Notes under the pieces: model-generated
The model's database searches: none
Told to the model about the DNA's origin: nothing
Seen by the model: only the letters and a program-made list of their open reading frames with translations
Source: Octopus vulgaris
Lineage: Eukaryota
Direction: 5' to 3'
Assembly: GCA_951406725.2 (NCBI GenBank)
Contig: OX597814.1
Location: 151,528,001 to 151,592,000 of the forward strand
DNA: 64,000 nt
Translations under genes and position numbers: made by a program
Shown here: positions 25,786-62,695 of the stretch, one piece after another
How the letters are laid out: every line of letters starts with the position of its first letter
Position numbering within the stretch: the stretch's first letter is position 1

Positions 25786-26165
25786 GAGGAGTGGCTGTGT
25801 GGTAAGTAGCTTGCTTACCAACCACATGGTTCTGGGTTCAGTCCCACTGCATGGCACCTTGGGCAAGTGTTGTCTACTATAGCCGACCAAAGCCTTGTGA
25901 GTGGATTTGGTAGACGGAAACTGAAAGCTGCCCGTTGTATATATGTATATATATGTGTGTGTGTCTGTGTGTCTATCCCTCCAACATCATTTGACAACCG
26001 ATGCTGGTGTGTTTACGTCCCTGTAATTTAGTGGTTTGGCAAAAGAGCCCGATAGAATAAGTACTAGGCTTACAAAGAATAAGTCCTGGGGTCAATTTTC
26101 TGGACTAAAGGTGGTGCTCCAGCATGGCCACAGTCAAATGACTGAAAACAAGTAAAAGAGTAAAG
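25786..26165 (+). mobile_element. SINE family A (preceded by a more decayed copy at about 25404-25750)
   Basis: Matches the family consensus with CpG decay. Confidence 0.85.
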
Positions 26166-26420
26166 AGAGACTAAGTACCAGACTTACAAAACGAAGTCTG
26201 ATGTCAATTTGATTGACTAAAACTCTTGATGCTGTTACCCCAGTATGACCACAGTCCAACGATGACAGAAAGAAGAAAAAATACTAAAATAACAAAAGAA
26301 TATTTTTGTTCAACTGTTTCATTTCCCAGTAATGAACTCTGTGTATGAAAGAACAAAGCTATTGCAAATATCATACAGAAATGAAAATGACAAAGTCCGT
26401 ACTGGAGCAAAGATGTTTAA

Positions 26421-26621: not shown

Positions 26622-27356
26622 TTAAAGAGCTTCTCAGAAATTAGAAAAAAATCTAGAAGTTACACACCTAAATACAATGTAGAAAATGTTTTTGGTACAT
26701 TCAATTCCTAAGAATAAAAGTAAACATTATAAATACCAACTTGAGGCAGAAAAGAAGTAAAAAGCTCATAACAGGACTTCAGCCACATATATATTGCTTA
26801 TCAGGTAACTATTTTACTGATGATGCAAATAAACTGCCTGCAGCACATTCTTCTCAAATCAATTCTTTAATGCTATTTTAGCTATACAATAGATCCATTG
26901 TTTTGAATCCTTTCATGAGTCTATTGTTCTTTTCAAGCTGAAATTGGTGCCAGTTTTGTAGACAATAGTAAATATTACCAAAAATGTTAATCAATTATTT
27001 GTGTCAGTTGGCATTCCTGCTTTTGTATTGTATTTTATACACCAAGGCTGATATGTTTAGAACATATTTCACACTTGACAACATTCTCCACAGTTTATGG
27101 ATCCAAACACTGAGGAAGCTGCACAACACGTTGGCTTCTGTTACATATGAACAGATATAAGAACTCTAACATCCAACTGTGGTTCAACAGAAGTATTATA
27201 AGAAACATTATGAAAAATACATTCATCAAAAGAACTGTTTCTGTTTGCAGATTTTATTAAGCTTTCTTGTAATCATCAAGTTTGTAAGTTTTAACAGGAC
27301 ATGGTGGACGATCTTTGATATCTTGCAAACAACTTGCACATGCAAGTGCTACCAGT

Positions 27357-27683
27357 CAAAAGCTCCGTATACCGGAAGCCAGCAAGTGTATGGGGTCATC
27401 AGGAGAGAATGTACGACGTTTCGGAGCCTACCTCTCGACGGCATCAATGCGCACCGCGCCCCCCTCACTAATATGAGGCCCCGCTTGCTAGATCAGCTGG
27501 TTATGAAGTTAAACTCAATATCCTTCTAGCCATCGCTCATCGTCTCTTTTTAACCAAATCCAGTGGCTAGCCTTCTGTAGATTGGATATCAGTCATGGTG
27601 GTATTGACTTTACGATGAGTTAGGCCTAGCGATAACAACAGTCGTCTCACGCTGTGTCCAACAAACCCTCTACATCCGATAGT
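27357..27683. other. Anomalous CpG-rich 327-nt insert with hammerhead-like motifs
   Basis: About 50% GC and about 18 CpG in CpG-poor flanks; AGT direct repeat at both ends; see findings. Confidence 0.55.
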
Positions 27684-29551
27684 ACATGCTCATCCTCTGT
27701 TAAATCTAATAGTTGCATAAAATAAATTAGCATCAACAAACAGAACTTCAACTAAATGATCTGTTTTTGATTGGTGGACATGTTTCCTAAAGAAAATATT
27801 TCCACCAGGCAGGCATCATCCAAACAAGTTTAGTTTCACTATTTGTTGTATATCCTACACAAAGAAAGAATCTTTAATGTGATGTGCAGTTAGTTAGAGC
27901 CAATAAGTATGACCTCATTGAATGTAAGGTTTCTCAGAGAATTAACTCCAATATGGAAATTTGTAGACTTCAAAGCTAACTGTATGCTCTTTTACAATGT
28001 ACCATTATGTAGTTACCATGGACTATTCCCCTGTCAATTGTTTGGAGTACCACTCAAACACTGGGGTCTATTTCATTGGTTAACTCCTTTATTATTAACA
28101 TTTGACTGTTGAGCCAGTGCAAGTGCACTGTGGTTGATATTACATTTAAAACATTACATATATATATATATACACTTGACAGATTTTACATTTCACAACT
28201 GTGTATACAATGTTTCATATCATTTACATTGATAATATCTTAGCAGTAAATCTATAATCTCTGTTTTGTCCTTGAATGAACATCAGAAATTATAAAGAGA
28301 AATACTTAAAAAGAGTAAAAAAAACAACAATCCCTCTCCACCAAAAACAAACACCAACAACAAAACATACAATAATGGAATCATGATGAATTCAAGTCAC
28401 AAGAACAACTTAGAAACAATATTAATGAACAGGCTATATGTACATCGTATGGAGAATCAGTTTTAGAAGAGCTGGCATAAATAGACATAAATAATACAGC
28501 ATGAAATGTATAAATATTTAAAACAGGTTTGTTTGTTCACTTTATATCTGTTTTTCCATACTAACTTAGATTAGAGAAATACATATCAGTGAGGCATTGT
28601 TTTTACAGTAAGATGTCCAACATGTCATCAACCTTTACTTGCTTTTTCAAATAAGGATCTTTTCATTCCACTCATCTTTGAAAGTGCAGAGCTACCGGAT
28701 AATATGTTGACAGGGAAATGAGTACAAACAACAACACTGTCCATGGTTCAGATCAATGATGACAATAAACTTTCACACAGACACACATATGCATACAAGC
28801 ATACATCTATGCATGTAAGCATACCTCTCCCAATAGACACACACACACATACATGATAATGATATATATCATCATAATCATAGTTTAACATCCACTTTCC
28901 ATGCCGGCATGGGTTGGACAGTTGGACAGTTTGACATAGAAATCACTAGCAGGGAGCTGCCCAGACTACAACAGCCCATTGAGGCATGGTTTCTAAAGCT
29001 GGACGCCCTTCCTAATGGCAACCACTTAACAAAGTATGCTGGGTGCTTTTTACATGTTACTGGCTCTATATAGTTTCTGTCTACCAAATTGATTCATGTT
29101 GGCCTAGGACTTTAAACTGTGTAGTGAGAGTGAATCTGAAATTATGAATTATGCGGTAACACCTAAGAATTATGAGTTAAATTAGAGAAGAATTTTATTT
29201 CCATCACTATCTGTGCCAGTTCCAACTTTGAGTCATTGGATCAAAGTAGAATAACTCGCTCTAATGTTCCAGTTTTTGGTATGGCTTCCACAGTTTGATG
29301 CCTTTCCTAATACATACCACATTACAGTGCAGTGGGTGCATTTTATCATGGCACCATATTTAATGTGTACACAATCAGCATTTACCTCCGTATTTCATGC
29401 TAACTAGGGGGTTATGTTGGACACCAATGTTTGCTTTGGCAAGTTTTTTTAGTGCAGAATGCCCTACTTAATACCAACAGCGTATTAGTTGTACAAAATG
29501 AAAGCATTAGTACTCAATACCATAGCTCACTACAATCAATATATTATTTAA

Positions 29552-51099: not shown

Positions 51100-51412
51100 C
51101 AATTCAAAGAACAATTAAAAACAGAGAAAAAAAAGAAAAAAAAACGAACATGAGGACATGCACAAACAAAATATCTATTTGACTCTTGGTAAAAGGAGAA
51201 AGTTGTTCATGTTTCAATGTACCGTTGGCGATTTTGTTTCCTCCGTCTTCCCTTTTCTGGAGCTTTCCTTCTCCTATGTTTCCGACGAAGAGCTCTGCTC
51301 GAAACATTAAACCCTCCTTCTTTACTTCTTTCCTGAGTGTCCAATAATGCTATATTTGTTCCACGTCCTCATGTTGTTGTGTTTTTTTGTGCTTTCTTGT
51401 TTGGATTAACTT

Positions 51413-51454
<42 letters not shown>

Positions 51455-51660
51455 TGGTTCAAATATACAGGAAACAAAAGACAAGGTGAGAGAACAAAAA
51501 CAGGAAGCAAAAGACAGTCGAGGGAACAACAAGCAGGTGTATTAGCTTAAAGCTTGGGAAGAATGGAAAGGTCTTTGGTGTTTTGAGCTTTTGCTCTTTG
51601 ACAGAAAGGAATGAGAGTTAAATAAAAATAGAGAGACAAAGAAAAAACAGAGAGAGAAAA
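51100..51660. mobile_element. Penelope-LTR-like inverted pair around (TA)n with hammerhead-like motifs
   Basis: gttt CCGACGA a gagc tct gctc GAAA catt aaac at 51278-51312; decayed inverted copy at about 51570-51610. Confidence 0.6.
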
Positions 51661-61897: not shown

Positions 61898-62695
61898 GAT
61901 AAATCTCAGAGCGAGTTATAAACAGTAGCAGCAACACATCATGACGTATATTTGCCATTTGAATATGGCTAAACCCTAAGGGTGGATGCTACTGTAGTTT
62001 GTAGCCCCAGGAAGACACCTCCTCCAGCTGGCTATAGACACACATTCTGTGCCCTATCAGTATTTGTGAAGGAAAGTCATCCCTCCCGTCTTCAACTTAT
62101 GATACACACGGACTCGAGTTTCAAGGTATTGCCCTATCATCGGCGTGTGACAATCATAGTTGTTGACGAGAAGTCAGTTTCCCTCACAAATACATATACT
62201 TTTTCCAGTATCGATTGACACTGATATTGAAAAAGTGAAATCAAACAATGATAAATCTCAGAGCGTGAGGGAAACTGACTTCTCGTCGACAACTATGATT
62301 GTCACACACCGATGATAGGGCAATACCTTGAAACTCGAGTCCGTGTGTATCATAAGTTGAAGACGGGAAGGATGACTTCCCTTCACAAATACTGATAGGG
62401 CACAGAACGTGTGTCTATAGCCAGCTGGAGGAGGTGTCTTCTTGGGGCTACAAACTACAGTAGCATCCACCCTTAGGGGTTAGCCATATTCAAATGGCAA
62501 ATATACGTCACTATATATATATATATATATACGACGGGCTTCTTTCAGTTTCCGTCTACCAAATCCACTCACAAGGCTTTGGTCGGCCCGAGGCTATAGT
62601 AGAAGACACTTGCCCAAGGTCCCACACAGTGCGACTGAATCCGGAACCATGTGGTTGGTAAACAAGGTACTTACCACACAGCCACTCCTGCGCCT
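61735..62695 (-). mobile_element. SINE family A split at its internal TA repeat by an inverted-repeat insertion
   Basis: 3' half at 61735-61862 and 5' half at 62531-62695. Confidence 0.85.
61942..62510. repeat. Inverted repeat with 246-bp arms (61942-62187 / 62265-62510)
   Basis: Arms nearly identical in reverse complement; ORFs 61982+ and 62470- translate almost identically. Confidence 0.95.

Follow-up and report, generated by a model that had tools for sequence, protein, structure and literature searches.

A predicted S-G-C-order hammerhead with a split stem II in the 3' untranslated region of a HERO-like LINE of Octopus vulgaris, and its possible circular RNA template

A stretch of 64,000 nucleotides of the Octopus vulgaris genome (GenBank assembly GCA_951406725.2, contig OX597814.1, positions 151,528,001 to 151,592,000 of the forward strand; hereafter the window, numbered from its first letter) holds on its minus strand, at 27318-27679, the 5'-truncated tail of a high-copy LINE of the restriction-like endonuclease (RLE) type with a HERO-like reverse transcriptase (RT). 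Sequence comparison indicates that the 3' UTR of this element carries a hammerhead with core blocks in S-G-C order and a split stem II, which probably cuts the RNA 119 nt before the end of the element and would thereby let the element travel as circular RNA.

A truncated copy of a HERO-like LINE

Recounting gave 149 G+C in the 300 positions of 27361-27660 and 18 CpGs in 27357-27683, while the 1-kb flanks were AT-rich and CpG-poor (31.5% and 30.9% GC; four and one CpG), in agreement with a preliminary description of this DNA. Homology to 29 other copies of the family spans 27318-27679 and sets the real limits of the block (362 nt). The AGT direct repeats that had been taken for element ends and a target-site duplication are neither, the left AGT lying 39 nt within the element; no target-site duplication was found here or, in consistent form, across the 30 copies compared. 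In these 30 copies, sampled by their match to the last 119 nt of the element, the 3' end (27318) is constant and the opposite end variable, with 5' ends 149-1,164 nt from the 3' end; in the window copy the truncation point is 27679. The constant end of the family comprises a terminal 30 nt (27318-27347) with a short hairpin (27333-27346), where reverse transcription is presumed to start. A first look gave 2,541 candidates for the block in the 2.8-Gb genome, 40 of which were scored (94-100% identity), and a 22-nt piece of it has 1,022 exact matches genome-wide.

The window copy consists of the last ~55 codons of an open reading frame (27515-27679, about 165 nt, in which the restriction-like endonuclease ends, its C-terminal part beginning at GCRGF and closing with the stop TGA at 27517-27515) and the 3' UTR (27318-27514). 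Compared with the intact unit, it carries 12 substitutions in 358 aligned bases and a 5-nt deletion between 27574 and 27575, by which the reading frame is shifted. With a single motif, a shifted frame and a stem III in which one pair is broken, it is an ordinary dead fragment, a dead-end product.

The intact unit measures 3,738 nt, with an open frame of 1,175 amino acids in locus L205. Long copies encode an RT (PF00078, RVT_1, at 1e-14; the best PDB matches are R2 proteins), followed by CCHC-like and restriction-like endonuclease motifs, with PD..E.TVP..K and C..C..H..C conserved in alignment A1. A single frame with RT, CCHC and endonuclease in this order, together with a constant 3' end and variable 5' truncation, places the element among RLE non-LTR elements. 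By eye, the RT motifs QKAGIPG, GIAAGCTIS and PVKSLG fit the HERO-1_BF and HERO-2_DR rows of the supplementary alignment of PMC5678591, as far as that supplement was available, and are unlike its R2, NeSL, Utopia, Dong and CRE rows. Insertion is mostly non-specific, as in HERO elements, the 88 3' flanks being unrelated save for a three-base bias. Searches of viral and prokaryote sequence collections found no relatives. A second, divergent family in the genome was considered and rejected: two protein searches gave places largely common to the HERO-like family, the loci having been checked in part.

The preliminary description was right in calling the block a recent mobile insertion, and its proposal of a retrozyme survives in part: the core is of hammerhead type and circular RNA may be involved, but the block is a fragment of a coding LINE and not a non-autonomous retrozyme of a few hundred nucleotides. 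That proposal, a non-autonomous ~327-nt retrozyme with a minimal type I hammerhead and an AGT duplication, drew on the size, the GC content and the hammerhead core words, and is now very improbable. About 165 nt of the block are LINE coding sequence, copies reach 3.7 kb and beyond, the ends differ from AGT, the blocks follow another order than in type I, and substitutions of the window copy underlie the proposed layout; continuity with the 1,175-aa frame refutes it. The window copy is moreover single, with one ribozyme-like motif and no tandem, and the unit to which it belongs is coding and 3,738 nt long.

An assembly artefact or foreign DNA had also been suggested, and the contrast in composition with the flanks and the lack of a single contig across the whole insertion would agree with it. 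However, the 22-nt matches are spread genome-wide, contigs of runs X15, X16 and X17 continue from the left flank for 28 nt inside the element (just below the 31-nt bridging criterion), and a loose contig end in run X2 is the flank of the window copy. An artefact is thus unlikely, and we regard this explanation, foreign DNA included, as scarcely credible. Contigs of four runs contained no joint across the insertion that would represent an empty site.

Around the insertion no long open reading frame was found when the local host-gene context was checked. Two other interspersed repeats flank the block (25800-26170 and 28860-29050), each with 70-85% match to many fetched loci. Elsewhere in the genome, copies of 367 nt at L002, L013, L238 and L243 are nested in another young LINE and were apparently duplicated along with it, and L212 (G000:C11:84627800-84634300) is an insertion whose 5' part is inverted: 1,763 nt in reverse are joined to 3,514 nt forward, with the two 3' ends facing outward.

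Resemblance of the first part of the block to a repeat at 51520-51610, which had been proposed, is weak at best: blastn gave no match there at E<=10, and the local alignment scores (17 and 18) were equalled by 37 and 12 of 500 shuffles.

A hammerhead core in S-G-C order

In the family the core reads GCC-GUC-GAGAG, then GAAA-CGGC, then CUCUC-CUGAUGA. Stems I and III close around GUC as in a hammerhead, and the order of site, GAAA and CUGAnGA is that of type SGC. On the minus strand of the window, block S (27432-27442) contains a stem III strand, GUC (27439-27437) and the stem I strand GAGAG, with the predicted cut at 27437|27436; block G (27415-27427) contains the stem II 3' strand, GAAA (27422-27419) and the other stem III strand, in which position 27416 breaks one pair in this copy; and block C (27396-27407), assigned from the pairing in relatives, contains the stem I strand CUCUC and CUGAUGA (27402-27396). 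The perfect CTGATGA and the other motifs quoted in the preliminary description were all found in the sequence. By contrast, the degenerate minimal hammerhead that it assembled from them, with gtc-GTA following GAAAC, arises from substitutions of the window copy at 27416, 27413 and 27412, where the family reads otherwise. An extension of stem III, with its 5' strand at 27449-27454, would pair with 27415-27410 in the family, as judged by eye, and is damaged in the window copy.

A type I or minimal order of the Penelope type was also considered for the locus and rejected, as the sole perfect CUGAUGA lies 3' of GAAA and no type I-order match is present there. Hammerhead-like words in type I order (C[CT]GANGA, short stem, GAAAC) do occur elsewhere in the window, at 51282-51312 (+), 23793 (-), 62309 (+) and 62143 (-), and resemble those of Penelope-like elements; the clearest, at 51282, falls outside 51520-51610. 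A long near-perfect inverted repeat at 62141-62312, otherwise seen only as a sub-threshold miRNA hairpin, has ends adjoining the same hammerhead-like word on opposite strands.

For comparison, 80 metagenome loci were found by protein, 72 of them with at least 150 nt of downstream DNA. GAAAC..CTGANGA is present downstream in 24 of these 72 relatives and in one shorter locus. Its strict form is absent from the other 48, which counts against the reading; these are distant, decayed, cut short or members of one motif-less family (36-49% identity). One related family (L101, L102, L107, L108, L115-L117, L119, L121, L127 and L128; 36-55% protein identity) has its own common 3' UTR without the strict motif and could serve as a natural control; in two of its loci, L116 and L117, the downstream DNA matches the N-terminal region weakly. 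Variant cores (UUGA.., AGAAC, AAAAC, GGAAU) were seen in L069, L094, L096, L086 and L137, which retain stems I and III, and in L097 and L135, which break the stem I rule.

A non-redundant set of 21 motifs was obtained by removing the near-duplicates L073, L077, L078, L120 and L129 and adding L205. Pairs were counted by script because the MAFFT core alignment misplaces block S; the scripted counts ignore kinship among the relatives. At the site and stems I and III, at least eight of nine pairs form in 19 of the 21 motifs, against a shuffle mean of 0.11 (maximum 2); among cross-family chimeras, 49 of 420 reach this level. For stem I the script output contains 15 sequences, one of which comes from a misplaced site (L099). 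CUGANGA, GAAA and an NUH triplet with the A15.1-U16.1 pair are all present.

Stem II is where the motif departs from known hammerheads. Directly, at most three of its five pairs form, and the first (10.1-11.1) is possible in only 2 of the 21 motifs, short of the stem II of a hammerhead; likewise, the uninterrupted block C (stem I, CUGAnGA, stem II) that defines type SGC in the available text of PMC10085705 is missing. The five bases that precede GAAA have their partner instead in a strand located 20-28 nt upstream of the site, with all five pairs in 16 of 21 motifs and at least four in every one; for five pairs the shuffle mean was 1.6 and the maximum 6. The upstream strand starts with G in 21 of 21, facing C (19) or U (2) before GAAA, that is, as the G10.1-C11.1 pair. 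In the window this displaced 5' strand of stem II (U2, GGGGC) occupies 27458-27462, its first G at the expected G10.1 place.

Bases after CUGANGA pair still further upstream in a closing helix, P0, with at least six of seven pairs in 16 of 20 relatives and in 170 of 400 chimeras. P0 is the weakest helix; in the window its 5' strand (U1, 27479-27489) would pair with 27395-27381, the 3' strand (27381-27395) having been assigned from the pairing in relatives. A hairpin sits between the two upstream strands in relatives; at 27463-27478 in the window it would be formed by CCUCA/UGAGG, and it is predicted in many relatives. Three helices listed in the preliminary description (gagag/ctctc, cctca/tgagg, and agcaag..gggg with cccc..cttgct) are the same as helices found in relatives. 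As predicted, the fold amounts to a hammerhead that has gained a two-helix domain between A9 and G10.1. That it needs such an insertion, because the direct 10.1-11.1 pair forms in only 2 of 21, counts against it. The motif is a well-supported new wiring of the hammerhead core and is likely to be active.

Two general checks proposed with the first description gave no signal. Folding energy was no better than that of shuffles (z of -0.01 on the minus strand and -1.29 on the plus strand), as expected for a pseudoknot, and Rfam matched no ribozyme family in the window or the region, a negative that counts against the reading.

Copy ends, unit junctions and the RNA template

Copies starting anywhere in the 34-nt interval from -124 to -91, counted from the 3' end, were searched for, and all 53 matches were fetched. 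A script classed 24 as independent truncations, the other matches being indels, deletions or inversions (28) and a duplicate (1). Nine of the 24 begin exactly at -119, the predicted cut 27437|27436, a base that had been predicted from the motif before the truncations were counted; one begins at -120, two at -122, one at -123 and at most three at any other base. Under a uniform null, which is crude, such a pile-up has P of about 1e-8, and as L334 is by eye a small deletion, the count becomes 9 of 23. None of the 30 copies of the first sample started at the cut, a sample too small for the purpose (about 2% expected), and copies starting there are estimated at only about 2% of the family. Contigs of runs X2 and X3 read across the cut site, which counts against cleavage. 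On balance, and on evidence that is indirect, we consider it likely that the RNA cleaves after GUC.

At L347 (G000:C26:34306000-34307600) no fewer than six units of ~150 nt, derived from the ORF end and the ribozyme region and ending just before CUGAUGA, stand in tandem and form a minisatellite born from the motif.

The 3' UTR of R2 binds the element protein and sets the priming point. The fold described here could be a non-catalytic RNA of this kind, its likeness to a hammerhead being a relic or a convergence. This reading would accommodate the direct stem II in 2 of 21 motifs only, the cores that are variant or missing in some relatives, and the fact that the RNA behind most copies ran unbroken through the site. 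We nevertheless judge it improbable, since CUGANGA, GAAA, the NUH triplet and the G-C pair beside GAAA are kept while the stems vary, and since the 5' ends pile up at the base given by the hammerhead rule, where RT would already have copied the pairing partners.

If the RNA were linear, cleavage 119 nt short of the 3' end would separate the priming end from the ORF; the long copies point to a solution. Protein searches gave pairs of matches spaced 3,735-3,737 bp apart. Among 20 long loci, seven reach base 1 of the unit, and each continues into a truncated second 3' end (241-1,974 nt); in all seven the two parts are joined without gain or loss of a base. With the first 173 nt of the unit as query, six of the 40 matches listed (from 68 candidates) are truncated inside it and 34 reach base 1. 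None of these 34, two of which may duplicate each other, stops at base 1 or at -119: each is followed by another 3' end, over a length of 6 to more than 1,500 nt but mostly of less than 500 nt, and in 25 of them this extension crosses the cut site.

In L207 both parts of the tandem share 11 of 11 variants, five of them private; in L208 four private variants are common to both parts, and in L205 one is. The four tandems of the seven without a shared variant are the youngest or shortest, too young or too short to tell. Following 88 3' ends, the first three flank bases match the CTA of the unit start in 49, 81 and 67% of cases (backgrounds 15, 35 and 34%), a bias that could also be an endonuclease preference, which counts against its use here. 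The relatives L088 and L094 likewise run from the 3' UTR into the N-terminal zinc-finger region, and one contig bridges the unit junction in a run whose RNA status is a guess. These data fit a template that would have no end at base 1, with re-duplication from one unit occurring at insertion.

Copies at L235, L237, L241, L242, L244, L247, L249, L250, L255, L258 and L263 consist of a 3' end, a 5' region and a jump to the last 300-600 nt; these short, internally deleted derivatives may be non-autonomous mini-units in which both motif and junction are retained.

R2 RT is capable of template jumping from the 5' end of an RNA to a 3' end. The ribozyme may accordingly cut while the template stays linear, tandems being produced by RT that jumps from the RNA 5' end to the 3' end or by read-through of tandem parents. 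Template jumping on linear RNA stays a serious rival because the extensions past base 1 are mostly short (under 500 nt), like fresh priming events; the pile-up at the cut further indicates that linear cut RNA gets copied, and RNA from one source copy would share private variants too. Yet 0 of 34 copies stop at base 1 or at -119; the junction lacks added or missing bases in 7 of 7; and the two parts would be free to diverge if they were inherited from a tandem parent, whereas those of L207 share 11 of 11 variants. We think a linear template rather unlikely.

With a circular template, the cycle would probably begin with a source copy longer than one unit and holding two ribozymes, whose transcript would be cut into the 3,738-nt monomer; either the ribozyme or a ligase of the host would then close this monomer to a circle. 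The element protein would nick the DNA and begin to reverse-transcribe from an invariant internal site, with the next bases (CUA) aiding this step by pairing to the target. Most such events would halt early and leave fragments like the window copy; a few would exceed one round and so rebuild a two-ribozyme source copy, and RNA that had been cut and left unligated would give the 119-nt copies. For the broader proposition, that HERO-type LINEs are autonomous elements moving via a protein-coding RNA circle, which would be produced by a hammerhead that fits none of the six published permutations because a fourth, upstream strand supplies stem II, with a genomic 3' end that marks an internal priming site rather than an RNA end, we see the case as evenly balanced.

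Relation to known elements and significance

R2 carries a 5' HDV-like ribozyme. The present element would resemble R2 as an RLE LINE whose self-cleaving RNA (predicted here) processes a co-transcript; the ribozyme of R2 lies at the 5' end and defines that end, whereas in the HERO-like element the predicted cut falls 119 nt short of the 3' end and is not the starting point of long copies.

Type-SGC hammerheads (HRIMA-1 and variants) were described by Eckert et al. 2023 (PMC10085705). According to the available text, the octopus motif shares with them the order site-GAAA-CUGAnGA, pseudoknotted stems I and III, all core bases, and a short linker that joins stem I to a stem II strand. In type SGC, block C is contiguous with the stem II strand, insertions of more than 1-2 nt being assumed absent (PMC10085705); in the HERO motif, the stem II 5' strand is upstream of the cut and the bases after CUGANGA pair with another upstream strand. 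The portions available of that paper report no SGC RNA in genomes of known organisms, in contrast to the present motif, which is located in an animal LINE. A precedent for an interrupted backbone is the plus-strand hammerhead of CChMVd with its extra A10, from which, in the available text of PMC3705267, it follows that the A9-G10.1 backbone tolerates insertion; CChMVd inserts one base and the HERO motif a two-helix domain.

Like the HERO clade as presented in the accessible parts of PMC4640811, PMC10294476 and PMC7650587, the element has one ORF with an N-terminal zinc-finger-like motif, RT, a CCHC-like motif and an RLE, and a dispersed insertion; R2-Hero is reported there as typical of cephalopods. 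Neither a ribozyme nor copies exceeding one unit nor a circular intermediate is mentioned in the same parts of these papers. The literature searched yielded no description of a HERO ribozyme, although subscription journals, Repbase Reports and supplements (bioRxiv, Eckert) could hold one.

The proposed cycle is like that of non-LTR retrozymes, in which, according to the available text of PMC7229834 and bioRxiv 10.64898/2026.07.22.740005, multimers are proposed to be cleaved by a ribozyme, with ligation of the monomer and reverse transcription of the resulting circle into tandem copies. Retrozymes are non-coding, 170-400 nt long, with type I hammerheads, and depend on Penelope-like elements (same sources); unlike them, the HERO-like unit has 3,738 nt, its own RT and endonuclease, and copies that are 1.0-1.5-mers.

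If the proposed reading is true, a non-circularly permuted hammerhead would occur in animal genomes, where the available text of PMC10085705 reports none, and with a wiring excluded by the scheme of that paper; the split wiring would also explain why Rfam missed it. There would further be a LINE lineage with rolling-circle reverse transcription of circular RNA, so far proposed for retrozymes, which would bear on how RLE LINEs define the ends of their RNA and regenerate full-length source copies.
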